Assembly (NCBI GenBank): GCA_038064195.1
Contig: JBBTTO010000003.1
Span: 43,029-107,028, forward strand
Direction: 5' to 3'
Source: Patescibacteria group bacterium
GTDB taxonomy: Bacteria > Patescibacteriota > Microgenomatia > Levybacterales > UBA12049
Length of the DNA stretch: 64,000 nt
The notes beneath the pieces are model-generated. The model was not told the origin of the DNA. It searched no databases and saw only the letters and a program-made list of their open reading frames with translations. Positions 7,407 through 64,000 of the stretch are shown here, piece by piece. Numbering within the stretch: the stretch's first letter is position 1; the number at the start of each line of letters is the position of its first letter. A program made the translations under genes and the position numbers.

Positions 7407-9612
<2,206 letters not shown>

Positions 9613-9616
<4 letters not shown>

Positions 9617-11088
9617 GGGTTGTCGGCGAAAATGTCATTAGCGGTTTTGCGAGCAAGTTGGCCGGCCTCAAAGAGCGAAGAAGACAGCTCAACCTTTCCA
9701 ACCTTTTCTCTGACAGTAGAGTGTTTGGAAGTAAGCGCATGAAGCCTGTGAAGGTCTGAGAGTAACGTATCATTTTCTGATGTAATCCAGTACCCGTCCC
9801 AGACCAGCGCGATCATAAAAAACTGAAACCAGCTCTCATAGTTGCCAAGTTGCGGGAGATTGAAAAGAAGAGATAATTTGTCTGCTTTATGCAATGTGTC
9901 TTTAGCATCAGCAGATAGCTCCTGACTAAAATGACTAATCTGTAATAACCGTTCCGCTTGACTGAGAAAAGAGGTAACTGTTGAGATCGTTTCACGCATG
10001 AGCGGGGTCCTGGTCTGTCTGCCAACACGGGTTACTGACAGGAAGGGGTGAATAGCCGGGCGTTGTCCTTCCAGAAAACGTTCTTCGTCAAAGTATAAAT
10101 GCCCGTCTGTCATGGACATGAGGTTGGTCTGAATATAACCGGTGAGATCTCCCTGCTCTGTCTCGGCAATAGGAAGACAGGTTATAGAGACTGTTTTATC
10201 GTCAGTTATTTTGAAATTTCCCGCTCTCTCAAGTAATCTGGCATGCAGGTAGAAAATATCGCCCGGGTAGGCGTTTCGTCCGGGGAAGCGGCGGGCCAGG
10301 AGTGAGAGTTGGCGGTAAGCACGCGCGTGAGTAGTTACGTCATCCAAAACGATAAGGGTATCCTGTCCCATGTCTCTAAAGTATTCAGCGAGTCGCATGC
10401 CGCTAAAAGGAGTCAGCAGGATAAGTCCGGCAGGATCTTCAGGAGACGAGGCAATGATAACTACTTTTTCCAGACATTCGTGCTCTCGTAGTGTTTGAGC
10501 CATTGCCTTAACCGATGAAAGGGGCTTACCAATTGAGACATAAATACAGATTGTACCTAATCTGGCCTGAGTGATGAGTGTATCTTTAGCAAACTGCGTC
10601 TTTCCTGTTTTTCTGTCTCCTAAAAGTAATTCACGCTGGCCCATGCCAAGAGGAAGGAGTGTATCGACAAGGAGCGATCCGGTGAGACATTGTGTCTTTA
10701 TCTTCGCCCGTCGGCTGATCCCGCTTGCCTTTATTTCGACCTCAAGCGGTTCTGGTGTCCGCATCCGGTATGAACTTATGTAGTCATCTCCTAAGGGTGA
10801 AACAATCTTTCCCAGCAGATGCTCACTGGCTGGGAACATGACGCGTTCACCTGTTCTGACAGCTTTTATATCAGGAGTAGGTGGGTCACCTTTAATAAGG
10901 ACAATTTGACTACTCTCCTGGCCGATACTAAAGACAAATCCAATCGCCTCATTCTCAAGGAGGATTTTCTCATTAAGGAGTACTCCTTTGAGCCCTGAGA
11001 CAGTAAATAGGTGTCCATCGGCCGTTATGACAATCCCTTGTGGAAATTGCTTTTGAGAATAGGCCGCGAATGTTTCCTGTTCTGTCAT
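9613..11088 (-). CDS. atpA: F-type ATP synthase alpha subunit
   Basis: Walker A GDRKTGKTQFAKDTLITQ and an alpha-type N-terminal beta-barrel. 491 aa. Confidence 0.95.
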
Positions 11089-12128: not shown

Positions 12129-12155
12129 CTTGACATCCAAGCATGGGAATATAAT
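12129..12155 (+). promoter_or_regulatory. Candidate sigma70-like promoter (TTGACA-15nt-TATAAT) for the large surface-protein gene
   Basis: Seen directly. The TTG that opens the ORF-track call at 12130 is the -35 box itself, so the true start must be downstream. Confidence 0.3.
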
Positions 12156-15100
12156 ACTGTACATAGAGGAAGTATTTTCACAGATTCAGGCAATAAATTG
12201 GAGGCTTCATCTGCTCAACCAACAATCTCTTATATCAGGTTTAATCGCTCAGTTGAGAACAACGAGGGGAAAGCTTAGCTTTCTCTTCTTTGGCATGGTT
12301 TTATTTTCCGGCTTGAGTGTCATTGGCGTTAATGCCTTCTTACGGTTTGTTTTTTCTCCTGCCAAGCCTCAAGAATTAAGCTCCGCTACAAGGGGCGGCC
12401 TGGCAGTACTGGCGGCAACTGACGAGCAGCCGGAGTTTATCTTTAATGTGAATGTTCCTGCTTTCTTCAAAGAGAAAAGTGAATTTCAGTCAGATGTTCT
12501 GGTTAAGGGCGGGATGGTCGTGACAGGTGAGACTGTGATGAATGGCAAGATCATCGTTGGGAATGTCATTTATTCATTGACCGCGGGGAGTGGTATTAGT
12601 ATCAGTTCCGGACAGACACCAACTATTGCCAATACAGGGGTCTTATCTCTTCAGGATAAGAGTGGTGATCTTGACTTTACTCAAGGTGACGGAATCACGA
12701 TTGATGGCTTGAAGTTCACTAATGCTGATCGGGGATCGTCACAAAAGATGTTTAAGACCATTACGGTCTCAGGTCAAACAGATATTGTCGCTGCCAATAA
12801 CACGGATACACTGATTTTTGCTGCCGGCAGTGGAGTGACACTCACCACAAACGCGACTACCAAGCAGTTAACCATCGCTGCCTCAGGCGGCAGCAGTCAG
12901 TGGACGACAAGTGGCCTTGACATCTACTACTCCTCAGGTAACGTCGGAATTGGAACTACAAGTCCCACAGAGGCTCTGCACATTGTTGGCAATCTCAAGC
13001 TTAGCGGCACGACGACATTTAATGGGGTAACTTATACGTGGCCCTCAAGCGATGGATCGGGTAACTATGTCCTGTCAACAAATGGTTCAGGCACACTCTC
13101 ATGGGCAAATGTCTCAAGTTTAGTTACTAACTACTGGCAGCTTAGTAGTGGGGCAGTATCTCCTGCCAGCATTACAAACGATCTATTGCTGGGCGGGACA
13201 TCAACTGCTTCGGCGCTGATCAAATTTACTGGTACCTCAGGAGGAAATAGCTTTATTAATACTGCAAATCTTGGAATAGGCAGTACTAATCCGCAAGCAA
13301 AGCTTGATGTCAATGGCAGCATTATCGCAGCCGGAACCATAACTGGCTTGACAGGACTTACCTCCAGTGGAACGATTACTTTTTCAGGTTTTTCAACCAA
13401 TGGTGGGCTGCTCTATACCAATGGCAGTGGTGTAATGGCTCAAGCCGGAGCAGGTACAGGCTCTCAATGTCTTTTGGGAGGTACCACCCCTGCCTGGGGA
13501 TCATGCGGGGTAGACTCACAGTGGACGACAACAGGAAGTGATATTTATTACAATACCGGGAATGTCGGTATCGGCACAACTGCGCCTGTCGGCAAGCTGG
13601 ATGTAGAGGGTAAAGTGACCGGAAAGGCATTAGTCGTCCTTAACGAGACAGGCAACCAGGATATCTTCACAGCCAGTAGCTCAGGAGCTTCTAAATTCTC
13701 AATCACCAATGCCGGTAATATTAATTTCAAATCATCATCTTCATCAATTGGTCAGGGCAATACCATCTATGGATCAGATCTCTCAAGCGGTAATCTCTTC
13801 CTCATCTCTACAACTCATGCTACCAAAGGACGAGTCAATTTCCATGACACCCTTAACTATATAGATAGCACAGGAACTCTTAGCTTACAGGGTGATGCGA
13901 CGTTTAGCGGTGGTAACATCGGTATTGGTACAGGAGCAAATCCGGTTGCTGCTATCAGGTTAAATGGCACCTCAACCTTTGATGTCTATTCGGTAATCGG
14001 TTCGCCGACCTTGACTATCACCAATACGGGGGTTGGACTGAAGCCAACAATTGCTATTGTGGGGAACCTGAGTGTCTCCCAGTATGCCACCGTCAGCGCT
14101 TCCCTGGCTGTCGGGTACTCTTCCGTCCCGGCTGGTACAGGCAATGCCGTCTTCTCCGGCAATGTCGGTATCGGGACGACTCTTACTTCCACATCTCCTT
14201 TGGCAGTTGCCAATTTGCCAACCGGTGGGATCATAACCCTCATGGTTGATGCTGATGGCAATGTCTTTAAGGCAGCCTCGTCTATCCGCTATAAAGACAA
14301 TATTCAACCTTTCTCAACCGATTTCAAAAAGATTCTTTTTGCCTCACCCAAAAAGTATACTTACAAGTCAACCGGGACAGCCGATATCGGTTATTTAGCT
14401 GAGGAGTTTGATCAACTGGGATTGACAGACTTGGTTATCTATGACAAAGACAACAGACCGGATGCGTTAAAGTACGACAAGATCTCCCTTTTTATGCTGG
14501 AGGTGATGAAAGGTCAACAAAACGATATCCAGGCTCTTAAAGCTGCTCTTCCCGGGTTGACGACCACGCAGTCTAGTAGTCAGCTTGATGCGGTTGACGT
14601 GAAGGACTTGGTCGCAACCTCAGTTGCCGGTCTCAGTACAAAAGCCTCAGATCAGGGACCTTCGACAAGTGATGGGCTGAGTGCCTCTCTTGCGACAATC
14701 TCAGGTGAGCTGAGGGTCAAAGGGAATGGCCTCATTGAGGGTATCCTCACTGTCGTTGATACGCTGATTGCTCATAACGTTATCCTGAGCGGAACGGTTA
14801 ACTTCTTCGGTGATACGATCTTTAAAGGCGCAGTTGATTTTTATAAACCGCCCGTCTTTAGTAGAGATACTGCAGGTATGGCTATCATCACCAGGGACGC
14901 GACTGAGGTGGAAGTCGTCTTTGGGACTGAGTATAAGGCTGTGCCAATGATTAATGCGACTATCGATGTCATTAAGCTCACGCGGAATAAGGATGAATCT
15001 GATGACGCGTACGCGAAGCGTCAGGATGACCTGGAGCAGGCCTTATTAAATAGTGACGTACGCTTTATCGTTACACGTAAAACCGTCAAAGGATTTGTCA

Positions 15101-15288
15101 TTCGTTTGAGTAAGCCAGCGTCTGTTGATGTCTCATTTTCCTGGACAGCGCTAGTGGTCAAAGATCAGTTGACAGATGTGCCTAAGCTGGATAACAATGC
15201 CAAGCAGTTCATTCCTGCTCCAACAGTCACTACTCCACCGGGTTTACCTCCTGATCAGTCTTCATCCTCGAGCGCTACTCAGAACTAA
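12130..15288 (+). CDS. Giant cell-surface protein with tail-fibre-like repeats and a C-terminal S74-type intramolecular chaperone domain; probable real start ATG at about 12295 (MVLFSGLSVIGVNAFL signal anchor)
   Basis: Internal repeats SQWTTSGLDIYYSSGNVGIGTTSP..L.V.G recur at about 12895, 13520 and 13900. The C-terminal block SSIRYKDNIQPFS...GYLAEEFDQLGL...PDALKYDKISLFMLEVMKGQQ matches the autoproteolytic chaperone domain of phage tail-spike/endosialidase-type fibres. Confidence 0.65.
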   Translation: MTSKHGNIILYIEEVFSQIQAINWRLHLLNQQSLISGLIAQLRTTRGKLSFLFFGMVLFSGLSVIGVNAFLRFVFSPAKPQELSSATRGGLAVLAATDEQPEFIFNVNVPAFFKEKSEFQSDVLVKGGMVVTGETVMNGKIIVGNVIYSLTAGSGISISSGQTPTIANTGVLSLQDKSGDLDFTQGDGITIDGLKFTNADRGSSQKMFKTITVSGQTDIVAANNTDTLIFAAGSGVTLTTNATTKQLTIAASGGSSQWTTSGLDIYYSSGNVGIGTTSPTEALHIVGNLKLSGTTTFNGVTYTWPSSDGSGNYVLSTNGSGTLSWANVSSLVTNYWQLSSGAVSPASITNDLLLGGTSTASALIKFTGTSGGNSFINTANLGIGSTNPQAKLDVNGSIIAAGTITGLTGLTSSGTITFSGFSTNGGLLYTNGSGVMAQAGAGTGSQCLLGGTTPAWGSCGVDSQWTTTGSDIYYNTGNVGIGTTAPVGKLDVEGKVTGKALVVLNETGNQDIFTASSSGASKFSITNAGNINFKSSSSSIGQGNTIYGSDLSSGNLFLISTTHATKGRVNFHDTLNYIDSTGTLSLQGDATFSGGNIGIGTGANPVAAIRLNGTSTFDVYSVIGSPTLTITNTGVGLKPTIAIVGNLSVSQYATVSASLAVGYSSVPAGTGNAVFSGNVGIGTTLTSTSPLAVANLPTGGIITLMVDADGNVFKAASSIRYKDNIQPFSTDFKKILFASPKKYTYKSTGTADIGYLAEEFDQLGLTDLVIYDKDNRPDALKYDKISLFMLEVMKGQQNDIQALKAALPGLTTTQSSSQLDAVDVKDLVATSVAGLSTKASDQGPSTSDGLSASLATISGELRVKGNGLIEGILTVVDTLIAHNVILSGTVNFFGDTIFKGAVDFYKPPVFSRDTAGMAIITRDATEVEVVFGTEYKAVPMINATIDVIKLTRNKDESDDAYAKRQDDLEQALLNSDVRFIVTRKTVKGFVIRLSKPASVDVSFSWTALVVKDQLTDVPKLDNNAKQFIPAPTVTTPPGLPPDQSSSSSATQN

Positions 15289-23687: not shown

Positions 23688-25817
23688 ATGGCGTACCGAA
23701 TCACCAACAGGTTCTCTGATCAGTTGGAAAAAGTTATCACACTGGCAGAAGGAAGGCCATTTCTCTTCCGCTATGGTTTGACTGTTACTACGTGTCTGCT
23801 TGCATCCTTCCTGCTTTTTGGAACGCATGCCATTATCGGCCCGACTAATCCTTATCTTTTTCTTCTGGGAGCTGTTCTTGTTAGTTCATGGTATGGGGGG
23901 AGCAGACCCGGTTACCTGGCATTTCTCTATAGTGTGGTATTCTCCTGGTTAACCTATGTGCAACCGGCAATTGATGCGCGTGATCCGGCTCTTATTAGGG
24001 TTCTTTTGCAGGACGGACTATTTATTGTCGAATCAATCCTCGTATTACTGCTGGCCTATCGCCGCCACAAAAACTACATTGAAATGCAGGTGCGTACAGC
24101 TCAACAGGCAGTGATTGCCACGATCGGGCAGTACGGACTTGAGGAACAGAATTTAACGGGGTTTATCCAGCGCGTCATGCACGCTATATCTAAAACATTA
24201 GACGTGGAGTATTGTCAGGTTTTAGAGTTACTGCCGGATAACAAATCACTGCGCTTTCGTTCGGGAATCGGTTGGAGGAGAGGCTTACTTGGTAAAATTA
24301 TTTATACCGGGGATAGCAATTCACAGGCTTCATATACGTTGCAGGTTAACCGTCCGGTAATTTTTAGAAATCTTCAGAAAGAGCGTCGTTTTAGCGGAAC
24401 GGAATTGCTTGAGGAGCAGGAAATTGTCAGTGGCATGAGCGTAGTAATCCCGGGTTCGCCCCAACCATATGGAGTGCTTGCAGTCCATACAAAAAAACAG
24501 CGCGAGTTCACTCGAGATGATGTCAATTTTCTAACAGCACTTGCGAATGTTATTTCTACAACAATTGAACGTCGAACAATCAGGTACGAACTTGAATTGA
24601 TGTCAAGACTTAACTCCGAGCTGGTTAACTCACTTGATCTTGATCAAACACTTGCCGGAGTGGTCTCAAGTCTAGTTCCTAACTTTGCTGAGACTTGTGA
24701 GATATATATCAAAGACGCGGAGCAAAGGACAAGTTTATTTGAAGTTAAATCAACAGTTAAAGAAAAAGAGCGTCTTTTTCGTGAGATCGGCGATAAATAT
24801 CCGCCGCTTTTTTCCTCCAAGCGGCCTACTGCTCGTGTTTTGCGTAGTGGTAAGCCTTTGTATATGCCCTTACTTTCTTTATCTTATCTTGATGATGTAT
24901 CAACCGATGCTTATCATAAGAAACTTATCAGACAACTCGGACTTACCTCGATTATGGTTTTGCCGATTAAAGCACGGCATAAGATAATCGGGACAATAGG
25001 GTTTGGCTCATTTGATCGTGGCCGTATCTTTAATGAAAGGAATTTCCTGCTGGCTCAGGAGATAGCTGATCGTGTTGCTGTGGCGATAGATAATGCTAAT
25101 TTATATCAGGAGGCACGTAATGCTGTTCAAGCCCGCGATGAGTTCCTTTCCATTGCCTCACACGAACTCAAAACACCGCTTACTTCAATGCTCCTGCAGC
25201 TTCAAGCAGTTCTGCACAGTATCAAAAATGAGTCTCTTGCCAGTTTTTCAATTGAAAAGACTATGATCATGCTTGAGAGTACTCTTTCACAAAGTAAACG
25301 TTTGACACGACTTGTCAATGATCTCTTAAATATTTCACTCATCACCACAGGTAGGCTTCAGCTGGAGAAAGAGAAAGTTGATTTGACAAGGACAGTCAAG
25401 GATGTCATGCAAAAGCTCAGCCCCCAGATAAAAAAAGACAAGATCACTATTTCATTTAACGGCCCTGAGTCTTTAATAGGCAATTGGGATCCTATTCGTC
25501 TGGAACAGGTTCTCATCAACTTACTGACCAACGCGATTAAATACGGAGAGGGTAAGCCGGTTGAGGTAGAGCTTCAGGAGAAAAATAACATAGCACTGCT
25601 TCGAATCATTGATCATGGCATGGGGATTCCTCAGGATCAGCAGGGGAAGATTTTCAAACGTTTTCAGAGGGGGAAAGTTAAAGCATCTATTAAAGGACTT
25701 GGGGTAGGGCTTTATCTGGTTAATGAAATCGTTTTGGCCCATAAAGGCAAGATAGAATTGGAGAGTACTCTTAAGCAAGGATCCACATTTAGTATCGAAT
25801 TACCACTCTCAACGTAA
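23688..25817 (+). CDS. Orphan sensor histidine kinase (N-terminal membrane domain, two GAF-like domains, HisKA, HATPase_c)
   Basis: H-box SIASHELKTPLTSM. N/G boxes NLLTNAIKYGEG, IIDHGMGIP, GLGVGLYLV. N-terminal TM bundle. No response regulator nearby. Confidence 0.85.
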   Translation: MAYRITNRFSDQLEKVITLAEGRPFLFRYGLTVTTCLLASFLLFGTHAIIGPTNPYLFLLGAVLVSSWYGGSRPGYLAFLYSVVFSWLTYVQPAIDARDPALIRVLLQDGLFIVESILVLLLAYRRHKNYIEMQVRTAQQAVIATIGQYGLEEQNLTGFIQRVMHAISKTLDVEYCQVLELLPDNKSLRFRSGIGWRRGLLGKIIYTGDSNSQASYTLQVNRPVIFRNLQKERRFSGTELLEEQEIVSGMSVVIPGSPQPYGVLAVHTKKQREFTRDDVNFLTALANVISTTIERRTIRYELELMSRLNSELVNSLDLDQTLAGVVSSLVPNFAETCEIYIKDAEQRTSLFEVKSTVKEKERLFREIGDKYPPLFSSKRPTARVLRSGKPLYMPLLSLSYLDDVSTDAYHKKLIRQLGLTSIMVLPIKARHKIIGTIGFGSFDRGRIFNERNFLLAQEIADRVAVAIDNANLYQEARNAVQARDEFLSIASHELKTPLTSMLLQLQAVLHSIKNESLASFSIEKTMIMLESTLSQSKRLTRLVNDLLNISLITTGRLQLEKEKVDLTRTVKDVMQKLSPQIKKDKITISFNGPESLIGNWDPIRLEQVLINLLTNAIKYGEGKPVEVELQEKNNIALLRIIDHGMGIPQDQQGKIFKRFQRGKVKASIKGLGVGLYLVNEIVLAHKGKIELESTLKQGSTFSIELPLST

Positions 25818-25859
25818 AATTATACTAATTCTTTTGTTCTTTTGTAAAGGTGGGGGGGG

Positions 25860-27299
25860 CTAGACGGTGGCGTTGATATCGCCGATGAGGACCTCAAAGG
25901 GTAGACGGTAAAGCCCCCTTTCAACGCCGTAGTTCACACGATTAATGATGGAGGAGGTATAGTCCATGGAGAGATAATCATCCTTGGGACGGTAATACGC
26001 TCCCAGGAAAGCAAAGGCATCGACATTGCGATACAGTTTGTTGATAGCCTCATTGATTGACTTACCGGCTCCGGTAATAATGGCTAAATTCCAATCCGTA
26101 CCTACTGAGACAAGGTTGCCATGCTCATTACGGCGCACATCCCACATCCAGACATCTTTTTCGATCTCAGGTTTGTAATTGATGAGAATATCACTTGAGA
26201 CAGACTCATCTTCCTCATCCTGGTTCATATTAAAGATTCGGACGCTGCTTGCTACAGTTCCTACAGTAAAAGGATTTTTCTTTTTAACGATATTTTCAAA
26301 GAATGCGTTTGGCGAACCGCATTGTGCCATCTCTGTAAAGAGACAGTTATAGCCCGGGCGGTTAGAACAAAATTCACCAAAGTACATTTTGCCGTCTTTT
26401 TTACTAACTAAGATTGAAGCATCCCAGATGAACCAGCCTTTATGTTCTTTGGCCATTTCATCAACAATAGGCGGGAAAGCAATCTTATTGAGCCTTTCTT
26501 CCATATCAGTTGGGAAGACGAGGTCTTCGCTGCATCCTGTCTGAACGGAGATATTGCCGCTGCCAAAGGATTTATTCTCAAAAAGTACCGAGGTCGCGAT
26601 CGGGACACCATCGTAGTAATACTTTTCAGGAGTCAACTCAATAATGGAGGGGATAAAACGCTCCAGGATATATCCCAGTCGCTCATATTTGTCCGGGAAA
26701 TTCGTCAGAATTTCAGTAATTTGATTATTGGCCAGCTCGGGGTCATCGTTACTGGGGACATAGGTCATGGCACTATCATGCTGGCCTTTTAAGACCCAGA
26801 TATCTTTACTGTCTTTAAGAAATGTTATCCCTTCCTCAACTTTTTTAAATTCAAGGATCTCCGGAGTATAGAGTTTTGGGTAGTGCTCTTTGACAAATTG
26901 TTTGGCCCTATCCCGATCAACCTCGAAAAGAAAATCATCACGGGTTGGGAAGTTGCCGTGAAAACCAAGATCTTTAATTTGATCAGCCCAGCGAAAAAGA
27001 TTGTTTTCTTCAAAAAAGATGAACCACTCATCGGGGTTTTCGATTTTCTTCATTTTTTCAATGACAGCATGGGCATCTTCAAGCGGCATCATCCCCTGAA
27101 AAAGTTGCAGCCTGCGCTTTCTGTTAAAGTCTGTTTCTTTAGCAATTTCTCCTTCCATGACGTAGTCACTGATGTTTTGAATGACACCTACCATGACTTC
27201 AAAACCTTGCTGGTGGAGTTTGTAGGCGATGGGGAGTCCGAGGCCTGAAAAAGTGATAAAAATATACTTCATGAAGTGATAAAAATTAGTATTAAACAA
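25860..27299 (-). CDS. Divergent PurD-like (phosphoribosylamine--glycine ligase family) ATP-grasp enzyme, orphan
   Basis: KYIFITFSGLGLPIAYKL resembles the PurD N-terminus. WVLKGQHDSAMTYV resembles the lysine region. GEFCSNRPGYNCLF resembles the EFNCRFGDPE motif. No other pur genes are in the window. Confidence 0.45.
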   Translation of the reverse strand: MFNTNFYHFMKYIFITFSGLGLPIAYKLHQQGFEVMVGVIQNISDYVMEGEIAKETDFNRKRRLQLFQGMMPLEDAHAVIEKMKKIENPDEWFIFFEENNLFRWADQIKDLGFHGNFPTRDDFLFEVDRDRAKQFVKEHYPKLYTPEILEFKKVEEGITFLKDSKDIWVLKGQHDSAMTYVPSNDDPELANNQITEILTNFPDKYERLGYILERFIPSIIELTPEKYYYDGVPIATSVLFENKSFGSGNISVQTGCSEDLVFPTDMEERLNKIAFPPIVDEMAKEHKGWFIWDASILVSKKDGKMYFGEFCSNRPGYNCLFTEMAQCGSPNAFFENIVKKKNPFTVGTVASSVRIFNMNQDEEDESVSSDILINYKPEIEKDVWMWDVRRNEHGNLVSVGTDWNLAIITGAGKSINEAINKLYRNVDAFAFLGAYYRPKDDYLSMDYTSSIINRVNYGVERGLYRLPFEVLIGDINATV

Positions 27300-27381: not shown

Positions 27382-29061
27382 TTATTGCACCAGGAGAGAA
27401 TTACTGGTGAGTGTGGGATGATAGGTATAACCTGATCGGGTAATATCTATGATGGTACTGATGAAAGTTCCTTTTTCTTTAGTTCGTTGCTTAAAGCTTA
27501 CCTTGCCTGAAGTATTTGTCGTTGCTGAATATGAGTAAATAGTTCCTGAGGGAGTCTTGAGTTGTAATTTGACTGTCGCTGAGGAGAGAGGAGTGGAGGT
27601 CGCTTCATTTATAACAGTCACGGTAGTATTTATCCGACGATAGGCTCCTGAAAGAGTGGTGTAGGATAGGGAGATATTAGAGGCAGTCATAGTGGGTAGA
27701 GGTGTAGGCGTAGGTTTCGCGGTAGGCGTTGGAGTAGGGGTAGTAGTGGGAGTAGGCGTGGGTGTAGCACTCGGAGTAGCCAAAATAGAGACTGCTTTAA
27801 ACGTATTTATACGGCCGTAGGTAAAGTAAGTACCGGTTCCCGATATGTGATCAGCTGTCGTTTCGATTTGATTCCTGGTACATGTATTGGTCGCGCAGAG
27901 TCCTGTTGCGAAGATGAGAGCCGCTTCGCCTGCAACAAATGGTGTAGCCATCGATGTGCCGGAGAGTGTCGCGTAGGAATTATTATCATAGGTTGAATAT
28001 ATATTTACCCCCGGGGAAGCGACATCGACCCAACTCCCACGATTAGACCAAGTGGCCAGATTATCATTACTGTCGGTTGCGGCGACCGCAATGACATTTG
28101 GATAATACGCCGGGTAGGAAGGTGCAGTTGAACCGTTATTCCCGGCAGCTGCAACTACGACAGCGCCTTTACTCCAGGCATAGTTCACTGCATCAGAGAG
28201 GGCTTGTGAACTGCTGGAGCCACCAAGACTCATACTGATCACTTGCGCGCCATTATCTGCTGCCCAGGTAATACCATTTATAATCCATGAATAGTATCCG
28301 GAGCCATTGCTATCCAGAACTTTACCATTGATCAGACCGGTATTGTATCCGGCTCCGGCAACTCCTGTTCCATTATTCGTATTGGCAGCAACAATCCCCG
28401 CGACATGTGAGCCATGGCCGTTGTTATCAAGACTACTGGCATCTGTCGTGAAGTTGGCATCCAATATGACTTTGCCTGTCAGGTCAGGATGTGATTCGTC
28501 AATACCGGTATCGAGAATTGCTACCTTAATTGACGGGTCTCCATGGGTAATATCCCATGCACTTGCGCTCTGGGTACTCGTATTGGTAGCATTTATTTTA
28601 AATAACCCCCATTGTTGCGGGAGTGAGGGGTCGTTAGAGATTGACGTTGCCTGGGCTATGAAGTCAGGTTCCGCATATTGAACGAAGGGATTATTATTTA
28701 AGCTTTGGAGTACGAGATCTTTCTTATCTGAGGGGACGTGAATGACTTCTATTTTGAGCTTATTAATTCGGTGTTTGAGTATCGCGCCGGATTGTTTACG
28801 CACATTTTGCTTATCACTTTCGAGAGCTCCTGCTTTATATTTCACGATGATTTCGTCAGGAGATGAAGGAGCCGGAGGCGCTGATGGAGAAGATGGGGGG
28901 AGAGGTGCGATAAGGCTGGAATATGCAGGCCATGATGGAACAAAGATCAGGAACAGAATAATGACTGAGATACCTAACAAACGAGACAAAAATACATGTT
29001 GACGCATTCGAAGAGGAAAATATTCTTTGTGCTGTTTGTGAATTCGGGAAGGATGCCTCAT
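27382..29061 (-). CDS. Subtilisin-like serine protease (S8), signal-anchored, with a Pro/Thr linker and a C-terminal beta domain
   Basis: Catalytic triad motifs VAILDTGID, HGSHVAGIVAA and GTSMATPFVAGEAALI. PTPTPTTTPTPTPT linker. Confidence 0.85.
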   Translation of the reverse strand: MRHPSRIHKQHKEYFPLRMRQHVFLSRLLGISVIILFLIFVPSWPAYSSLIAPLPPSSPSAPPAPSSPDEIIVKYKAGALESDKQNVRKQSGAILKHRINKLKIEVIHVPSDKKDLVLQSLNNNPFVQYAEPDFIAQATSISNDPSLPQQWGLFKINATNTSTQSASAWDITHGDPSIKVAILDTGIDESHPDLTGKVILDANFTTDASSLDNNGHGSHVAGIVAANTNNGTGVAGAGYNTGLINGKVLDSNGSGYYSWIINGITWAADNGAQVISMSLGGSSSSQALSDAVNYAWSKGAVVVAAAGNNGSTAPSYPAYYPNVIAVAATDSNDNLATWSNRGSWVDVASPGVNIYSTYDNNSYATLSGTSMATPFVAGEAALIFATGLCATNTCTRNQIETTADHISGTGTYFTYGRINTFKAVSILATPSATPTPTPTTTPTPTPTAKPTPTPLPTMTASNISLSYTTLSGAYRRINTTVTVINEATSTPLSSATVKLQLKTPSGTIYSYSATTNTSGKVSFKQRTKEKGTFISTIIDITRSGYTYHPTLTSNSLLVQ

Positions 29062-29258: not shown

Positions 29259-29981
29259 TTAGTTTGCCGGAGCGTTTCCATAGATCTTAACAGGTGTTCC
29301 TGGATTTTCAATTGTGGCTAAGGTGGTGTTGGCAGTTGAGACAGGTGTAGCCCAGTCATAGAGAATCTTTGCATCAGCTACTGAGAGGTTGATACACCCA
29401 TGGCTCATTGGATGACCAAAATTATTATGCCAATATGCACCGTGAATTCCATAGCCTCTTGCTTTGGGGACCTGTGCGTTATAAAAATACATGGTGGAGG
29501 GGACGTTAGGCAGGTCATAGTATGTGCCAAGTAGCTTATTGCCTCCTTTCATACGGGTATAGCTCAGCTTTATCCAGATTGTAAAATCACCGGTTGGTGT
29601 TCGCCCCCATTTGCCGGTAGAAACAGGAAAAGAATACACGACAGTATTATCTTCAAATGCATAGAGATGCTGGTTGGTCAAATCAATTTCAATCCGTTTG
29701 TTAGCTCCCGAGGTCGTGCCAAGGACAGGGACATTTGTCATCTGCGGTGTGTCATAGGATACTACACTTATTTGTCTGCCCAAAAATTCCCCCTTTTGCG
29801 TATCGTGATTATAGCTACCCGAGAGGTCAGAAATGCAACTGATAGAGTTGGCACAGAGGGAGGTTTGCATTTGAGTGAAGAAAGTCAGGAAAAAGAGAGT
29901 AACAGCAGCTATGAGAAAGAGGCGCTTGAGAGGTATTCGGTTAGTAATTCCTGGACGGGAGTTTTTTTTATGTTTTTTCAC
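29259..29981 (-). CDS. L,D-transpeptidase (YkuD domain)
   Basis: Catalytic motif HGAYWHNNFGHPMSHGCINLSVADAKILYDW with the conserved His/Cys, plus an N-terminal TM anchor. Confidence 0.8.
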   Translation of the reverse strand: MKKHKKNSRPGITNRIPLKRLFLIAAVTLFFLTFFTQMQTSLCANSISCISDLSGSYNHDTQKGEFLGRQISVVSYDTPQMTNVPVLGTTSGANKRIEIDLTNQHLYAFEDNTVVYSFPVSTGKWGRTPTGDFTIWIKLSYTRMKGGNKLLGTYYDLPNVPSTMYFYNAQVPKARGYGIHGAYWHNNFGHPMSHGCINLSVADAKILYDWATPVSTANTTLATIENPGTPVKIYGNAPAN

Positions 29982-31179: not shown

Positions 31180-32634
31180 ATGGAGAAAGCTGTCAGCCCC
31201 GATTTGATCGGGGTCTGGGATCTCAAATCTCAGTTTGAAAAGTATAAAGATCAGGAAGTCTTTGACTGCATGATCGCCGAGTTCTTGCTATGTGACGGGC
31301 GGTATATCCCTCAAGAAGAAAAAGCTTTAGAAGATTACAAAGTTACAAGTTTAGAAGATCTTGCAAAGAAGCAAAGAGAACGCTTCGAAGAACTGCCAAA
31401 GCTCGAAAAGCTCTATTACGACATTGAACTGCCGTTAGCACGGGTCCTGGCGCAGATGGAGCGGACGGGTATTACCCTTGATACCAAAACCTTACGCCTG
31501 GTGGGCGAGGAAATCGCTCAAGCAATTGTCGTAACTGAAGCAAAGATCAAAAAAGAAATGGGGGTTGATATCAATCTCAATTCCAGTATCCAGGTTGGGA
31601 ATTACTTGGCTGAAAAAGCCGGAGTTCCCTTAAGTAAAACCAAGACCGGACGCTACGCGACTAACGAGCAGGAAATCGCGAAATTTGCAGCGGATTTTCC
31701 TATCGTTGCCGACCTCTTGGTCTATCGTGAGTTATCGAAGCTGAGGTCTACCTATGTCGAAAGTCTGGTCGACAAAGTTGACGCGGAAGGCAGAGTCCAT
31801 ACCAGTTACAACCAGGTCGCAGTCAGTACAGGCAGGCTATCATCCTCAAATCCCAATCTGCAGAATATCCCGGTAACAGGTGAGTTCGGGCAAAAAATTA
31901 AATCATGCTTTATCGCCGGTAAAAATAACGTCTTTCTCTCGTTTGACTACTCCCAGCAGGAGCTACGGATTCTTGCCCATCTGACAGGAGAGGAGAAGTT
32001 GATACAGGCATTTAAGGAGTCCCGTGATGTGCATAAGACGACAGGGAGTTTGCTTTTTAATGTTGATTATGCGGATGTCACTAAAGACCAGCGGTCTGTT
32101 GCCAAGACGATCAATTTCGGCATCATCTATGGTATGAGCAGTTTTGGAATGAGCCAAGGGCTCACTATCCCAGTCGATGAGGCGCAGAAGTTTATCAATA
32201 CTTTTTATGAGACCTATCCCAAGATCCGCAGTTTTTATGATAATTACATGCAGCAGGGGAAAATTGACGGCTATGTCGAGACATTACTCGGGAGACGACG
32301 TTATGTCTTTGAATATCCGGGTCAGAAATTTATCGACAACGGTATGCGTCGGGTACTCATGAACTATCCGATCCAGGGGACAGCTGCAGACTTGATGAAA
32401 AAAGCGATGGTGGAGATTGATCGTGAAGTTTTAGCCAAAGAAAAAGATGTCAAACTTTTACTTCAGATTCATGATGACCTGGTCTTTGAGGTATCAAATG
32501 ATCCTTTGGTTTACAAAAATATAATTGAGAAGATCAGAAAAATCATGTGTGATGTCTATCCACTTTCAGTCCCAATTGAGGTTGATGTAAAGATAGGTAA
32601 GAACTGGGGAGAGATGGAGAAAGTCGAAGTTTAG
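31180..32634 (+). CDS. polA: DNA polymerase I family polymerase domain only (no 5'-3' exonuclease, vestigial 3'-5' exo region)
   Basis: Family-A motifs: RRVLMNYPIQGTAADLMKKAM (motif B) and LLQIHDDLVFEV (motif C). Only 484 aa. Confidence 0.85.
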   Translation: MEKAVSPDLIGVWDLKSQFEKYKDQEVFDCMIAEFLLCDGRYIPQEEKALEDYKVTSLEDLAKKQRERFEELPKLEKLYYDIELPLARVLAQMERTGITLDTKTLRLVGEEIAQAIVVTEAKIKKEMGVDINLNSSIQVGNYLAEKAGVPLSKTKTGRYATNEQEIAKFAADFPIVADLLVYRELSKLRSTYVESLVDKVDAEGRVHTSYNQVAVSTGRLSSSNPNLQNIPVTGEFGQKIKSCFIAGKNNVFLSFDYSQQELRILAHLTGEEKLIQAFKESRDVHKTTGSLLFNVDYADVTKDQRSVAKTINFGIIYGMSSFGMSQGLTIPVDEAQKFINTFYETYPKIRSFYDNYMQQGKIDGYVETLLGRRRYVFEYPGQKFIDNGMRRVLMNYPIQGTAADLMKKAMVEIDREVLAKEKDVKLLLQIHDDLVFEVSNDPLVYKNIIEKIRKIMCDVYPLSVPIEVDVKIGKNWGEMEKVEV

Positions 32635-54553: not shown

Positions 54554-55411
54554 TTATTTATTGCGCAGAAAAGCATAAACTTCTGTTCTGGAAGTTGGGT
54601 TATGCGGACTGCCATCAAATCTTCCCAATAATCCTTGGATTACTTTCTCACCTTTTTCATTGATTTCCTGACTCAATTTCCGGCAAGCAAAATTACTGTT
54701 TTTAGGAAGGAAGTAGCCCTTACCGTAATAGGCTGTTCTGAATAAATCCCCAATCATTATATATTCCTGCACATGTTCGTTTGTACGGAAATCTTCAGTC
54801 CAATCGACATCCACATTCATCCAACAGCTAATGACAATTGTTGGAGTTTTGGCATAGTTTTTAAGGCAATCTTTGTAGTCTAGATTCAAGATCTGGTCTT
54901 TTGGATCTTTATTTGTTTCTCCGCTTTTCTCCCAGTTTTTATTATCACTGGCAATAATAGTTACTTTTTTTGCATCTATTAACAGAGACAGTTTTTGTTT
55001 GAGAAAATGCGATAGTCGTCCATCACCGGCCCCGACTTCAAGAATTGTGACGGGGGAGGAGAAAGTCGTGTAGTACTCATTAATTCTGACTGAGAGGTAG
55101 CTAACTAATGAATCAATAAACTCTTGAGTATAGACTTGATAGACATTATTTTTATACAGAAATTTTGTAAACTCAGGATCAAGATACGGCAGCTCCTCAC
55201 TATTTGTCGGTAAAGAATCGCTGCGCGGGAAGACAGCTCTTATCTCAGCAAGTGTTGGAAGCGAATAATAATCTGTTATTTTTAAGGTGTCAGTTGTTGG
55301 TTGCATATCTATATTGTACTCCTTAGTAACTTTATTTGATTTCCAGAGAATAAAGAGGTCTTTTATCGAAATGAAATGCTTCTTTCCAGCCCAAGTTCTC
55401 AGATCTGGCAT
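54554..55411 (-). CDS. Class I SAM-dependent methyltransferase (last gene of the ATP-grasp operon); likely start MQPTTD at about 55306
   Basis: Motif I ILEVGAGDGRLSHFL. Its start overlaps the stop of the upstream paralog unless the internal Met is used. Confidence 0.6.
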   Translation of the reverse strand: MPDLRTWAGKKHFISIKDLFILWKSNKVTKEYNIDMQPTTDTLKITDYYSLPTLAEIRAVFPRSDSLPTNSEELPYLDPEFTKFLYKNNVYQVYTQEFIDSLVSYLSVRINEYYTTFSSPVTILEVGAGDGRLSHFLKQKLSLLIDAKKVTIIASDNKNWEKSGETNKDPKDQILNLDYKDCLKNYAKTPTIVISCWMNVDVDWTEDFRTNEHVQEYIMIGDLFRTAYYGKGYFLPKNSNFACRKLSQEINEKGEKVIQGLLGRFDGSPHNPTSRTEVYAFLRNK

Positions 55412-56219
55412 CGTAGAGTGTCGCTCCCAGTGAGAGAGCTTGAGTCATTTTCTGGAGGATCAGGAATTTGCCGAGACCATTGATTGAGCTATCTGTCCCG
55501 GAATTAAGCCCCACATATGTACCCTTATAAAAAATTGACATACCGATTGATACTTTTTTACCATTGAGAGATATTGAGATTATCTGCATTGGAAAGAGAG
55601 TCATGATTTCTTTAAAAAATTCGAGACGATGCGGTCTGAGGAATCCTGATTCTTCCCCAAAGCGCATCTTATTCAACTCAACCATCAAATCAAAGTCTGA
55701 AAAGACATTGTATTCGACTTTTATGTTCTGCTCGTGCAACTTTCGTAGCTGAGCTCTTAAATTCTGTCGAGGTTTGGCATTCCAGTACCTCTCAAGGTAG
55801 TCATCAATACTCGTAATCTTACTCAACGGAAATTCATATTTATACTCCTGGATCTGTACATTAGGGATACCCGGGATGTCGTCCGTCATCCATTCAAGCA
55901 GTGCAGGCCGATCAATTTGTTTGATAAGAGCTGCTTTTAGAGATTCGTAGCCGGGTTTGACATACATTTGATTGTCTTCCATGTGACTTCCCCCAAAAAA
56001 TTGCAAAACATTAGAATCAGAATTCCACTGGAGAGGAAGTACCCCGACGGCTTTCTCATCCTCAAATGCAGTAAAGAAAAAGAGGGGATAGTTAAAGAAT
56101 TTGTAGTAGGTATAGCGATAAGCCCAGTCGTCAGTTAAGCGAGCACTAGGTGAAAGTTCTCTCCATATTTCTTCAGCAGTTGCTAGATCAGTGATAGTTT
56201 TAAATGTTATATTATTCAT
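55332..56219 (-). CDS. FemAB/CelD-like (BioF2-like GNAT fold, PF13480-like) acyl/aminoacyl-transferase, paralog B
   Basis: The hallmark basic helix NAKPRQNLRAQLRKLHEQ (S-K-x-R-K-N-L-R-R-x-x-R-K-L type), and an N-terminal domain sharing L..W.ELSP...DDW.FRYTYYK.FNYPL with the upstream paralog. Confidence 0.55.
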   Translation of the reverse strand: MNNITFKTITDLATAEEIWRELSPSARLTDDWAYRYTYYKFFNYPLFFFTAFEDEKAVGVLPLQWNSDSNVLQFFGGSHMEDNQMYVKPGYESLKAALIKQIDRPALLEWMTDDIPGIPNVQIQEYKYEFPLSKITSIDDYLERYWNAKPRQNLRAQLRKLHEQNIKVEYNVFSDFDLMVELNKMRFGEESGFLRPHRLEFFKEIMTLFPMQIISISLNGKKVSIGMSIFYKGTYVGLNSGTDSSINGLGKFLILQKMTQALSLGATLYDARSENLGWKEAFHFDKRPLYSLEIK

Positions 56220-57229
56220 GCTTGATCACTCCTTGTATCACGAAGGTATTGCGGTTTTTTTAAGAGATTAAAATCAGTTTTCCAGCCAAAAGCACCTGAC
56301 CCACCTGCGTCGTATATCTTCATTCGTTCTTTTATAGCTGCATCGATTTTGAGCAACGTAATATATTTGCCAAGGTTTTTGACCTCTGGGTTGTAACCAG
56401 TATTAATTCCATAACAAATATTTTTATAGAATAGTACAAAACCCACACCTTGTTTTTCTCCGTTCAGCGTGACGGTAATAATTTTTGAGGGATATTTAGT
56501 AGCTATTTCACTAAAGAATTCGTCCCAGTGAGGGCGTTCATTAAAACTTGAGGTATTACCAAAACGAATTTTATTCCAGTATTCAAGAACCTTAAGATCT
56601 TCGACATTGTCATAACTTACTTCAACAGTATTGTTTTCTGTAAGCTTTCGTATTTGGGAGTTGAGGTTACGGCGACTGTCTCCGTCCAGGTACTTGGTTA
56701 CAAAGTCGGAGTAGTTAGTCATACCTGCAAGCTCTATGTAATAGTTATAGTCATGGATGGTTGTCTGAGCAAGAGACCCCATGTCAGGGCGCATATATTC
56801 AAGGACTGCGGGACCTTCTAGTTGTTCTAAAAATTGAGGTATTGTTTCTTCATAACCGGGTTTATAAAAAATTGCATTGTCTTCCATATAGCCAAACCCG
56901 GCAAAAAAATCATAGCAGCCTTTGGTCGGGTCCCACATCAGAGGGAGGAGCCCGACTAGCTCTCCCTGGTCATAACCGGCAATAAAGTTCAAAGGATAAT
57001 TAAAGTATTTATAATACGTGTAACGAAAATCCCAGTCGTCATAGAGGACTTTATTTGGAGAAAGAGATTTCCAGGCTTTCTCTGCTTCTTCGAGGTTAGA
57101 TATGTTTCTGAAGGTCAAGTTTTTCATACGGAGTAATGGTAAACCTGACTTCAGAGAATAGACGTTCCAGGTTGCTGGTTGCTTGTTTGGCATCCTTACC
57201 CGTTGCGGTAATCCAACCCATATAATCAA
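56216..57229 (-). CDS. FemAB/CelD-like (PF13480-like) acyl/aminoacyl-transferase, paralog A; likely start MKNLTF at about 57127
   Basis: DGDSRRNLNSQIRKLTEN motif. Co-linear similarity to paralog B. 4-nt overlap (ATGA) with paralog B. Confidence 0.55.
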   Translation of the reverse strand: MIIWVGLPQRVRMPNKQPATWNVYSLKSGLPLLRMKNLTFRNISNLEEAEKAWKSLSPNKVLYDDWDFRYTYYKYFNYPLNFIAGYDQGELVGLLPLMWDPTKGCYDFFAGFGYMEDNAIFYKPGYEETIPQFLEQLEGPAVLEYMRPDMGSLAQTTIHDYNYYIELAGMTNYSDFVTKYLDGDSRRNLNSQIRKLTENNTVEVSYDNVEDLKVLEYWNKIRFGNTSSFNERPHWDEFFSEIATKYPSKIITVTLNGEKQGVGFVLFYKNICYGINTGYNPEVKNLGKYITLLKIDAAIKERMKIYDAGGSGAFGWKTDFNLLKKPQYLRDTRSDQA

Positions 57230-58415
57230 AATCCTGAGGTGGCAGGAGAATCTTATCGCCTATGTTTTTAGTAAGGCGAAGTTCAAAGAGATGGAAATCA
57301 GTGTGAATTTTTTGATCAATATCAATCTTGCGAACGAGTCCTTCTTTAATTGGTAAGAAATATTTTCCTTCTAGATGAATTAAAGGTTGGGATGGTTTGC
57401 GAACTTTAAGCGGCTCACCGACAGCAATTTTGGCCGCATTTTCGATCAAATCTACGTTCCAGGCATGCTTGACAAAGCTATATACCTCATCTCCACCCAT
57501 GCGTAAATTAATCTCAATCGGGACAGGCCCTACGGATGAAGACTTAGCTTCAAAATGGATAACCCCGTTTTTGATCCCCAATTCGGAGAGTACCTTGGTA
57601 GCCATTCTAACAAGAGCATCCTGTTTGGCCTGAGGCAGACGAGAAGGGATAGCCTGTCCTGTCTCTATAAAGTAAGGCTCATGAGTCTGAAAGTTGTCAC
57701 TGATAGACCAGAACTTGACCTCACCATCTTGAAGGAGCATATCGATATCAACTTCAGTTCCATCAATATATTCCTCGACAAATACTTCCACATTTTCCCA
57801 TTCAGGTGCAAGCCAAAAGGAAGTGATGTAATGTCGGATTGCATCATAGCCCTTTTCCAGCTCTTCTATAGTGTCTACACGGATAACAAACGCACTACAT
57901 GCACCGTACATAGGCTTAATGACGAGGGGGAACTGTAGCTTTTGTGGAACATCGAGGATATCCTCTCTATTTTTTAAGGTATGATGACGTGGTGAGGGGA
58001 GACCGTGTTCACTACATACCTCTCGGAAGGTAAATTTATTCTTAATTTTAGCCACTGACTCAAAAGGATTACCTGTCCAGTCAAAAGTATCGGTGATTTT
58101 TGCTGTCAGGAGGATTGCTTCTTCCCAGAAAGTAAGAGTACCATCCAAATGATTACCGGGAGTATCTATGTAGGCCTTGATTTTAGTCAAACATTCTTCA
58201 TAGTTAGTAAGATCAGCTACTATCCATTCGTCAGCATAGACATCAGGGCAACTCTTCTCGGTATCTAAGATCACCACGTAATAGTCTAATGATTTCAGTT
58301 TTTTTAACACGAACTCTTTGGAAGGATACGCACTTCTAACTAAAAGGATATGTTTTGGATTGAGTGGTTTCATAATAGATAATAAATATCTTTCGTCTAG
58401 AGCAAAAATGCTCAA
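57096..58415 (-). CDS. ATP-grasp ligase of the L-amino-acid-ligase / D-Ala-D-Ala-ligase type
   Basis: FPLVIKPMYGACSAFVIRVD (Lys loop), VEEYIDGTEVDIDML and IEINLRMGGDEV (Mg/ATP motifs). 439 aa. The internal start MKPLNPKHILLV is possible. Confidence 0.7.
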   Translation of the reverse strand: MSIFALDERYLLSIMKPLNPKHILLVRSAYPSKEFVLKKLKSLDYYVVILDTEKSCPDVYADEWIVADLTNYEECLTKIKAYIDTPGNHLDGTLTFWEEAILLTAKITDTFDWTGNPFESVAKIKNKFTFREVCSEHGLPSPRHHTLKNREDILDVPQKLQFPLVIKPMYGACSAFVIRVDTIEELEKGYDAIRHYITSFWLAPEWENVEVFVEEYIDGTEVDIDMLLQDGEVKFWSISDNFQTHEPYFIETGQAIPSRLPQAKQDALVRMATKVLSELGIKNGVIHFEAKSSSVGPVPIEINLRMGGDEVYSFVKHAWNVDLIENAAKIAVGEPLKVRKPSQPLIHLEGKYFLPIKEGLVRKIDIDQKIHTDFHLFELRLTKNIGDKILLPPQDFDYMGWITATGKDAKQATSNLERLFSEVRFTITPYEKLDLQKHI

Positions 58416-62956: not shown

Positions 62957-64000
62957 CTATTTTTCTTTCTTCCAAAACTCTTCCTGGCGGCAGAGGTTTT
63001 TACGATCATTTTTATCAGCCAAAATCTGCTTGACTGCTTCTTCCAGGAAAATTGTATTTTGTGAACCCTTAGCCAGGACGATGCTATTCTTTACCAGATT
63101 TTCTTTCATAAATTCCCCGGCACGAATTGAAGTATCAAACCAGCGAATTTCCTTGAAGAGTGACTCGTTTAGTTGTACAACGGGTAAAACATATTCCCGA
63201 GTAAGGGGCCCAACAAGATACAGGTAGTCAACAATCCCTATCAATTTGACAGCTACTTCCTCATGCTCTATCTTGCTCTCTTCACCTAATTCGCGCATAT
63301 CTCCAAGGAGAAGTGTTACCGGTCGATCGGTTTCTTTTTTAAGAGTATCTACCAAATCGAGAAAAGTACTAATCGATGCTTTGGAGGCGTTGTAGGTGGA
63401 ATCAATGATCATGGTATTATTAATACCGCTAAAAAGACTGGAGCGCCCTTTAGGCAATACATAGTTTTTTTCAAGTGACGCTTTGATTTGTTCTAGAGTT
63501 AGTCCCGTTTGTAATCCAACCAGGATAGCAGCAGCAAAAACCTCGCGATATTCACGAGGAAGGATGAATCGGGGGAAATTAACAGTAACTTCTTCGCGTT
63601 TATCTTCAGTTTTAACGTAAAAAGCAAAAGATGTTCCTTTAAGACTTACTTTATAAAGACCATAGGAAATGTCGCAGCTATTTTTAGTGCCGAATGAAAG
63701 AAGCTTTGTACTCGTCGGTGTTTTACTTTTAATTTGTTCTGATACATATTCATCATCTGTATTATAAATTCCGATAGCACATTGAGATTTCGTAATTATT
63801 TTGGTATCTTCCTCGGCAATTTTCTGAATTATCAATTTAAGTCTCTCTTCTTCGCTTAGCGCATTGCGATTATCGCTTAGCGTCTTGTCAAATTGCAGTG
63901 AGTGAGTTGCCGAGACATTAAGTGAGACAGCAATGTGAGGTTTGAGAATTGTGAGCAGATACCCCATATTCTTAGGTGGGTCAGGTTCATCTATACCCAT
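62957..64000 (-). CDS. murF: Mur ligase family (UDP-MurNAc-tripeptide--D-Ala-D-Ala ligase-like), 5'-partial at window edge (N-terminus beyond 64000)
   Basis: Mur ligase central/C-terminal motifs TMIIDSTYNASKAS and LLLGDMRELGEES. The frame stays open to the window edge, so the track's Met at 64000 is artificial. Confidence 0.7.
   Translation of the reverse strand: MGIDEPDPPKNMGYLLTILKPHIAVSLNVSATHSLQFDKTLSDNRNALSEEERLKLIIQKIAEEDTKIITKSQCAIGIYNTDDEYVSEQIKSKTPTSTKLLSFGTKNSCDISYGLYKVSLKGTSFAFYVKTEDKREEVTVNFPRFILPREYREVFAAAILVGLQTGLTLEQIKASLEKNYVLPKGRSSLFSGINNTMIIDSTYNASKASISTFLDLVDTLKKETDRPVTLLLGDMRELGEESKIEHEEVAVKLIGIVDYLYLVGPLTREYVLPVVQLNESLFKEIRWFDTSIRAGEFMKENLVKNSIVLAKGSQNTIFLEEAVKQILADKNDRKNLCRQEEFWKKEK

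Follow-up and report, generated by a model that had tools for sequence, protein, structure and literature searches.

The gene and its surroundings

We analyzed a 64,000-nucleotide stretch of a Patescibacteria genome (assembly GCA_038064195.1, contig JBBTTO010000003.1), called the window here, and one gene in it that encodes a distant relative of PurD, the glycinamide ribonucleotide (GAR) synthetase (EC 6.3.4.13). The protein belongs to an undescribed family of ATP-grasp ligases from the PurD branch whose distribution between phages and cells is unusual. The window is a segment of a Levybacteria-like chromosome, with genes for L1, L11, NusG, the PolA polymerase domain, fmt, def, MreB, PBP2, DprA, TopA and ATP synthase. 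A first-pass annotation, made from the sequence alone, had reported a 479-amino-acid (aa) open reading frame (ORF) for the ligase, and such an ORF exists at 25860..27299(-), opening with a TTG codon. The true start is probably the ATG at 27272, not the TTG at 27299, because the closest 120 relatives are 467-478 aa long (one has 484) and the orthologues compared begin with MKY. The resulting coding sequence, 25860..27272(-), comprises 470 codons and a stop, and residue numbering throughout is that of the 470-aa protein.

The ligase gene converges with a gene for a GAF-GAF-HisKA-HATPase histidine kinase (23688-25817, +). Upstream on the same strand are an S8 subtilase gene (27382-29061, -) and a YkuD L,D-transpeptidase gene (29259-29981, -). 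The annotation had thus placed the ligase correctly between a histidine kinase and a protease/transpeptidase cluster. It had also described the gene as lying outside any purine context, which agrees with our finding of no canonical purD or purH within the 64-kb window and no pur gene among the window ORFs scanned. A near-consensus sigma-70-like site (TTTACA, 18 nt, TATAAT; 11/12 matches) was noted at 25819-25848(-), just beyond the end of the ligase reading frame, from where it would read antisense into the 3' end of the gene for the histidine kinase. Two such sites were found in the region and 3.8 were expected, and this one may be a chance match.

Relationship to PurD

Searches with the single sequence gave only sub-threshold matches to PurD. 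When the protein was checked against the Pfam models GARS_N, GARS_A and GARS_C, as had been proposed, GARS_C alone matched (E=0.043; 14.6 bits against a cut-off of 34.8). The NCBIfam model TIGR00877 scored 19.7 bits against a cut-off of 288, and in the PDB the PurD structure 2ip4 was matched by sequence at E=1.5. A profile of 45 family members, in contrast, matched eleven PurD structures with E-values from 6.5e-19 to 1e-5 over profile positions 97-436, including 5vev (6.5e-19), 2xcl (2e-13) and 1gso (3e-11). An AlphaFold2 model built on a 61-sequence alignment had a predicted local distance difference test score (pLDDT) of 93 and a predicted template-modelling score (pTM) of 0.90 and showed the four-domain (N-B-A-C) ATP-grasp fold of PurD. 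The first 15 Foldseek matches of this model in the PDB were all PurD chains, with E-values of 9e-25 to 9e-20 and TM-scores of 0.57-0.70. PurD is therefore the nearest family by both profile and fold, and the ligase is a distant relative of it whose homology is demonstrated by profiles and structure and is nearly invisible to single-sequence search. The description of the protein as a very divergent PurD homologue was accurate.

The next-best fold family was the branch of biotin carboxylase, PurK and PurT, led by biotin carboxylases at about 1e-15. These E-values are weaker than those of PurD by about ten orders of magnitude; motifs for biotin or bicarbonate are absent from the ligase family, whose C domain resembles that of PurD.

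The domain borders given here are approximate. The N domain (about aa 1-133; 26874..27272, -) is Rossmann-like and contains a family-specific insert at about aa 31-75 as well as the invariant residues R54 and N90. The first-pass annotation had recognized a PurD-type Rossmann start, which holds for the fold (strand 2-7, helix 13-21) and fails for the motif, since the GGREHA of PurD is replaced by SGLGLPIA. The B (lid) domain (about aa 134-207; 26652..26873, -) provides the ATP-binding K162, the counterpart of K145 in E. coli PurD, and the hinge residue E204. The A domain (about aa 208-340; 26253..26651, -) holds E212, the E232-x-K234 pair that corresponds to PurD D214/K216, a QTGC loop ending in C247, D284 and the catalytic loop. 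This loop, GEFCSNRPGYNC (aa 299-310; 26343..26378, -), is the EFNxRxGDP-like motif that the annotation had picked out; E300 and R305 are invariant in it, and C302 takes the place of a Mg-ligand Asn. The C domain (about aa 341-437; 25962..26252, -) is the sole part matched by Pfam and NCBIfam. A family-specific tail of 33 residues (aa 438-470; 25863..25961, -) follows, with Y438, S441, I442 and the invariant R445; its last 6 residues were modelled with low confidence.

Conserved and altered active-site residues

For residue mapping, E. coli PurD (from NC_000913) was aligned to the family hidden Markov model (HMM). The core of the active site is kept: E102 maps to E117, K105 to R120, K145 to K162, E193 to E212, D214 to E232, K216 to K234, E286 to E300 and R290 to R305, while R416 and D418 of the C domain are kept as R428 and D432. 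Identical residues in the two enzymes are therefore E102, K145, E193, K216, E286, R290, R416 and D418 (E. coli numbering). The mapped core residues are conserved in 45/45 sequences, or nearly so, of the 45-member alignment. The ATP-grasp residues K162, E212, E300 and R305 are invariant, as are R120, E232, K234 and D284, and a 20-position catalytic signature is kept in 99 family members. D284 stands where PurD has no Asp; an acidic residue near the first Mg-binding acid position is something that the ligase family shares with most ATP-grasp enzymes, unlike PurD.

The positions that are particular to PurD are changed. In the GDPE motif, D293 is Y308 (Y/W in the family) and E295 is C310 (S/A/C in the family), so that the family reads RxG-Y/W-N/D-S/A/C instead of R[LF]GDPE. 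The arginine of the C-domain GGR motif, R383, is replaced by D393 in a column that varies within the family. The Mg ligand N288 is replaced by C302, and Cys is found there in 41/45 and 60/61 sequences of the two alignments. Metal binding may be unusual for this reason. An Asn at position 304 (33/45 and 53/61) might stand in for the lost Asn of the E-x-N motif. Two near-invariant cysteines thus lie in active-site loops: C247 (26532-26534), in the QTGC loop that replaces GPNTGG of PurD, and C302 (26367-26369), in the EFC that replaces EFN. A metal-binding, redox or nucleophilic role is conceivable for them.

These changes bear directly on whether the ligase could be a GAR synthetase. PROSITE pattern PS00184 (R-[LF]-G-D-P-E-x-[EQIM]) matches E. 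coli PurD and none of 384 family proteins (0/384); the ligase reads RPGYNCLF at this site. The GG[RK]EH loop is likewise found in 0/384 relatives. The glycine ligands of Aquifex PurD are D212, R287 and E292 (PMC8880213), and in the human enzyme R13/E14, R292 and R385 form the proposed site for phosphoribosylamine (PRA) and phosphate (PMC2978367). Human R385 corresponds to E. coli R383, the GGR arginine. Mapping the ligase onto these two enzymes indicates that the acyl-phosphate side of the active site is kept, and that the proposed PRA ligands have all been lost together with one of the glycine ligands. Conservation of all PRA- and glycine-binding residues, which the annotation had named, together with a complete pur operon elsewhere, as what would refute its reading, is thus not seen. 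Furthermore, no pur gene is a conserved neighbour at the loci with annotated or clustered neighbours. By the same criteria, Brown et al. (2011) did not accept the 'extra' haloarchaeal PurD-like proteins as GAR synthetases (PMC3261824). Those proteins (Hlac_1553, rrnAC0307), which we liken to the ligase family by their description only, also lack the Asp of PS00184, have a divergent N-terminal loop and were judged by curators not to be real GAR synthetases (PMC3261824). Taken together, the residue pattern suggests that the ligase is very probably not a GAR synthetase and that its substrates are not glycine and PRA. Since the specificity residues of GAR synthetase are not kept, a different ligation reaction is likely, in agreement with the annotation's suggestion of recruitment to another amide ligation.

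Family size and distribution

A word-indexed database search returned 470 relatives, of which the top 120 are 63-100% identical to the ligase and carry no Pfam domain. An exhaustive HMMER search of 1.84 billion representatives gave 354 clusters (at 50% identity) with E<=1e-3 and 119 with E<=1e-30. With one genome taken per GTDB species, 77 loci were found. They come from Levyibacteriota and other Patescibacteria, metagenome-assembled genomes (MAGs) of Gammaproteobacteria and Coxiellaceae, Anaerolineales, Udaeobacter and other Verrucomicrobiota, Nitrospirota, Fimbriimonas, an acidobacterium and a Nitrosotalea archaeon. The complete chromosome of Aquicella lusitana, a 2.15-Mb isolate, also carries a family gene. 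Several genomes have 2-3 copies, with tandem pairs at five loci, and the catalytic signature is kept in all copies.

The annotation had pictured a lone PurD recruited in a reduced genome, and this does not fit the distribution: the ligase is a member of a distinct family, old and under tight conservation, that is most diverse in uncultured phages and also occurs in non-reduced bacteria (Anaerolineae, Verrucomicrobiota and the Aquicella isolate). Pfam, NCBIfam, PHROGs and PADLOC contain no model of the family; PADLOC and PHROGs gave no match for the window protein, its viral relatives or the partner protein described below; no member was found in 50,697 deposited phage genomes; BFVD returned generic ATP-grasp matches only; and literature searches found no description. 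UniRef and JGI pipelines label some members phosphoribosylamine-glycine ligase.

Several individual loci deserve mention. In the tandem pairs (L067, L069, L070, L072 and L073, each at about 8001-10810), the two genes are separated by 1-6 nt or share 4 nt, and the paralogues may form a heteromer or have two specificities. The copy in a Nitrosotalea sp. MAG (L084:8001-9305) is 26% identical and keeps 19/20 signature positions, with I for N at position 90, which indicates that the family reaches Thaumarchaeota or their mobile elements. Two loci labelled as uncultured Gammaproteobacteria (L011, L016) encode ligases 80-81% identical to that of the window in Levybacteria-type synteny (histidine kinase, PAP2, NTP transferase, SecE/NusG), and the labels probably reflect mistakes in binning or taxonomy. 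Near-identical pairs of ligase and partner likewise bear both 'Gamma' and 'Levy' labels (L025, L026, L077).

Phage relatives and inteins

In IMG/VR, relatives with 32-46% identity were found on about 17 viral contigs, which are 24-48 kb long apart from one of 86 kb and encode exonuclease, primase, SNF2 helicase, DNA methyltransferase and lysis enzymes. In these uncultured phages of about 40 kb, the PurD-like gene closes a long co-directional (late) block. One or two genes before it lies the gene for a protein of 863-1856 aa that carries the Pfam domain LPD38 in 2/3 of the phage types annotated, a domain described only in phage polyvalent proteins (PMC5512222). The genes after it include one for an M23 peptidase or an endolysin-like protein. 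In one phage subgroup, a GroES/Cpn10-like gene is directly upstream (L098:9654-9995, L100:9697-9993 and possibly L097:9676-9999). Three relatives bear a C-terminal extension composed of a coiled coil and a beta-rich part.

Four viral relatives (P0169, P0183, P0209 and P0211; L100:10001-12550) are interrupted by homologous LAGLIDADG inteins. The insertion site is identical in all four, namely the peptide bond between F301 and C302 in the catalytic loop (GEF/CxNR; window equivalent 26367-26372), and the near-invariant C302 is the +1 residue of the intein. One intein-bearing relative comes from a VirSorter contig, where its gene has the usual place in the late block. We know of no described intein in a PurD-type enzyme. 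Inteins in active sites are typical of important phage enzymes of nucleic-acid or nucleotide metabolism, and the late-block position in uncultured phages is consistent with this pattern.

In a neighbor-joining tree, the viral sequences are deep, long and paraphyletic, and the cellular sequences form a compact nested clade in which taxa are interleaved. This topology suggests that the ligase family may have originated in phages and then spread horizontally.

Linked genes and fusions

Neighbours were compared by clustering the ORFs of 98 loci. A partner protein of 125-180 aa directly adjoins the ligase in 34/97 loci, in phages and in cells; its gene either shares the strand of the ligase gene and overlaps it by 4 nt or converges with it across a gap of 1-14 nt. 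In two further viral loci, it is directly upstream of the ligase. The partner has no match in Pfam, PHROG or, by a search with its profile, the PDB, and no family member has it fused to the ligase. Its invariant residues include H50, E51, E54, D69, D72, H92 and E99. Its ExxE...DxxD pattern had pointed to a MazG-like protein; this assignment was rejected when the fold search gave zincin-like structures. The nearest folds were all zincin metallopeptidases (CapP, proabylysin, IrrE, SprT and Wss1), suggesting that the partner is a putative mini-zincin-like hydrolase with HExxE instead of HExxH. In a clade of Verrucomicrobiota, Udaeobacter and Nitrospirota, 12/13 of the loci that carry an Amidohydro_2 gene have it in the partner's position, and this placement may go back to a single ancestral event. 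Beyond the synteny of one lineage, the partner and the Amidohydro_2 gene of this clade are the only conserved neighbours at cellular loci.

Linkage of an ATP-grasp ligase to a zincin-fold, metal-dependent hydrolase is a repeated arrangement, as in RimK-type and L-amino-acid ligases with their peptidases. The pair described here differs in that the ligase is PurD-like and the hydrolase is a protein of 125-180 aa with HExxE and no Pfam model.

A second recurrent association is with a module of about 115 aa that resembles haloacid dehalogenase (HAD) phosphatases and is fused to the ligase in 26/384 relatives (24 N-terminal, 2 C-terminal). Its invariant Asp, Thr and Lys are arranged like HAD motifs I-III, and an (E/D)(D/N) motif IV is present as well. 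The HMM of the module matches a stand-alone gene two downstream of the ligase in the phage locus L098, which precomputed Pfam calls HAD_PNKP; in hhalign, the module and this gene were aligned with 67% probability at E=5e-5, a weak bridge. The HAD assignment was not confirmed by searches of Pfam or of PDB profiles. Two relatives (P0152, P0173) have a different HAD-like extension at the C terminus, and one locus (L091) combines a HAD-ligase fusion with the partner.

Two unrelated genomes have a gene of nucleoside metabolism close to the ligase. In Aquicella, a PNP_UDP_1 phosphorylase gene is directly upstream (L001:6849-7715), and in Levybacteria, a nucleoside 2-deoxyribosyltransferase gene is three genes upstream (L003:2587-3399). 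The arrangement is not conserved elsewhere, and we regard it as a weak hint of a nucleoside link.

The locus and its constraint in the Levybacteria-like lineage

In the Levybacteria-type synteny, PolA and the ligase are followed by the partner, a membrane protein, the histidine kinase, PAP2, an NTP transferase, SecE and NusG, with the partner and the membrane protein present at only some loci. The window and the locus L008 are without both. A tblastn search for the partner found nothing anywhere in the 64-kb window, and none of the partner's 95 database relatives is named as coming from the source genome.

The ligase is 80% identical to its orthologue in L008, a value comparable to PolA (79%). 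The corresponding values are 59% for the histidine kinase, 65% for PAP2, 54% for the NTP transferase and 91% for NusG. Nonsynonymous divergence (dN) from the orthologues is 0.12-0.13; since the synonymous sites are saturated, dN/dS is not computable. The ligase gene is therefore under strong constraint in this lineage and is as conserved as PolA.

Proposed activity and alternative explanations

It is likely that the gene encodes an active member of this new ligase family. Homology, fold, residue pattern, distribution, gene linkage and constraint are observed; catalytic activity, substrate class and the direction of horizontal transfer are inferred. The mechanism we propose is derived from the conserved residues and the known mechanism of PurD. 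MgATP would bind between the B and A domains, and a carboxylate substrate would be phosphorylated to an acyl-phosphate stabilized by R305, E232 and K234. Attack by an amine on the acyl-phosphate would then yield an amide. The acceptor or product would probably be a phosphorylated small molecule, nucleotide-like or phosphosugar-like. Descent from PurD, fusion to phosphatases and partners of the amidohydrolase type make a phosphorylated small molecule the likelier substrate class, and we put its chance at somewhat under even.

In many relatives, the ligase probably works with the small metal-dependent hydrolase and the phosphatase. The family appears to be phage-rooted and horizontally spread; in the Levybacteria-like lineage its gene is fixed on the chromosome, and the locus there has probably lost the hydrolase partner. 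One could imagine that the three enzymes form a phage pathway that makes or remodels a new phosphorylated amide metabolite, and that host-dependent bacteria (the candidate phyla radiation (CPR), Coxiellaceae-like bacteria and Udaeobacter) captured it repeatedly, with the ligase becoming a core gene there. We offer this pathway as a tentative proposal that is more likely wrong than right. If it were true, modified nucleotides, nucleic-acid base adducts and cell-wall precursors would be among the conceivable products.

Four observations weigh against our main reading, an active amide ligase of the PurD branch. In the window, the ligase lacks both the partner and the HAD module, so that its pathway there may differ. 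Nearly all members have Cys where the E-x-N motif of ATP-grasp enzymes supplies a Mg-ligand Asn. The HAD assignment consists of the motif order and one weak bridge. Finally, the phage-first rooting comes from a neighbor-joining tree that lacks support values and whose outgroup branch is very long, and we treat it as provisional.

One alternative is that the ligase attaches an amino acid or peptide to a protein or peptide, such as a virion protein, a cell-wall precursor or a host protein, and that the zincin-like partner, like the peptidase of other ligase/peptidase pairs, processes or removes the addition. This would suit the partner's resemblance to metallopeptidases, the phage gene's position as the last of the late or structural genes, next to those for LPD38 polyvalent proteins and for lysis enzymes, the extension of some relatives, which looks like part of a fibre or virion, and the envelope enzymes that neighbour the ligase in the window. 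However, PurD, a small-molecule enzyme, is the closest fold by ten orders of magnitude in E-value, and the three kinds of phosphatase fusion indicate a phosphoester substrate. In addition, an Amidohydro_2 hydrolase replaces the partner in one clade, and no gene for a candidate substrate peptide is conserved nearby. We consider a protein or peptide substrate rather unlikely, though the best placed of the alternatives.

Far less credible are two other explanations. A genuine, extremely divergent GAR synthetase that supplies or salvages purine intermediates would agree with the rank of PurD as nearest family, with the names given to some members by the UniRef and JGI pipelines and with the conserved counterparts of D214/K216 and R290, the residues through which PurD contacts glycine and the acyl-phosphate. 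Such an enzyme would have to function without PS00184 and the GGREH loop in any of the 384 relatives and without the C-domain Arg, and to score as far below the TIGR00877 and GARS_C cut-offs as the ligase does. It would also have no pur gene adjoining at any locus with annotated or clustered neighbours, occur as 2-3 paralogues or tandem copies in some genomes and serve as a late-block gene of 40-kb phages, all of which makes it highly improbable. The second explanation is an ATP-grasp phosphotransferase (kinase) that is paired with a PNKP-type HAD phosphatase for end-healing or for shuffling phosphates on nucleotides. ATP-grasp kinases exist, for example the inositol phosphate kinases, and the bridge from the fused module to a gene called HAD_PNKP by Pfam points in this direction. 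The invariant R305, E232 and K234, however, fit the acyl-phosphate/carboxylate site of PurD and not a hydroxyl kinase, and linkage to an amidase-type hydrolase suits amide chemistry better. We give a kinase just as little credence as a GAR synthetase and prefer amide ligation by a PurD-branch enzyme.

The distinction has practical consequences, as the label phosphoribosylamine-glycine ligase would wrongly attribute a step of purine synthesis to phages and CPR bacteria. The family is a well-defined target for enzymology, with a confident model, an invariant 20-residue signature, two recurrent partner enzymes and inteins in the active site. Identifying its substrates could bring to light a new metabolite or modification of phage origin and could explain the strong constraint in very different host-dependent bacteria.

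Other features of the window

A second ATP-grasp enzyme, unrelated to the ligase, is encoded at 57096-58415(-). It contains ATP-grasp_4 and LAL_C2 domains and is of the L-amino-acid-ligase type. A tblastn match of E. coli PurD at 57720-58211 (E=1.4e-4) falls within this ORF and is not PurD. The ORF overlaps two FemAB-like GNAT genes (55332-57229) and lies near a Mur ligase gene; the regions 54554-58415(-) and 62957-64000(-) look like a cluster for peptidoglycan side chains or cross-bridges. The family-A DNA polymerase ORF at 31180-32634(+) encodes 484 aa with the polymerase domain alone (residues 104-478), and no exonuclease domains were detected in it. Lastly, a 1052-aa ORF at 12130-15288(+), in what is otherwise a chromosomal CPR segment, has a weak match to Peptidase_S74 (21.9 bits against a cut-off of 22), the intramolecular chaperone of endosialidase that is typical of phage tail fibres.

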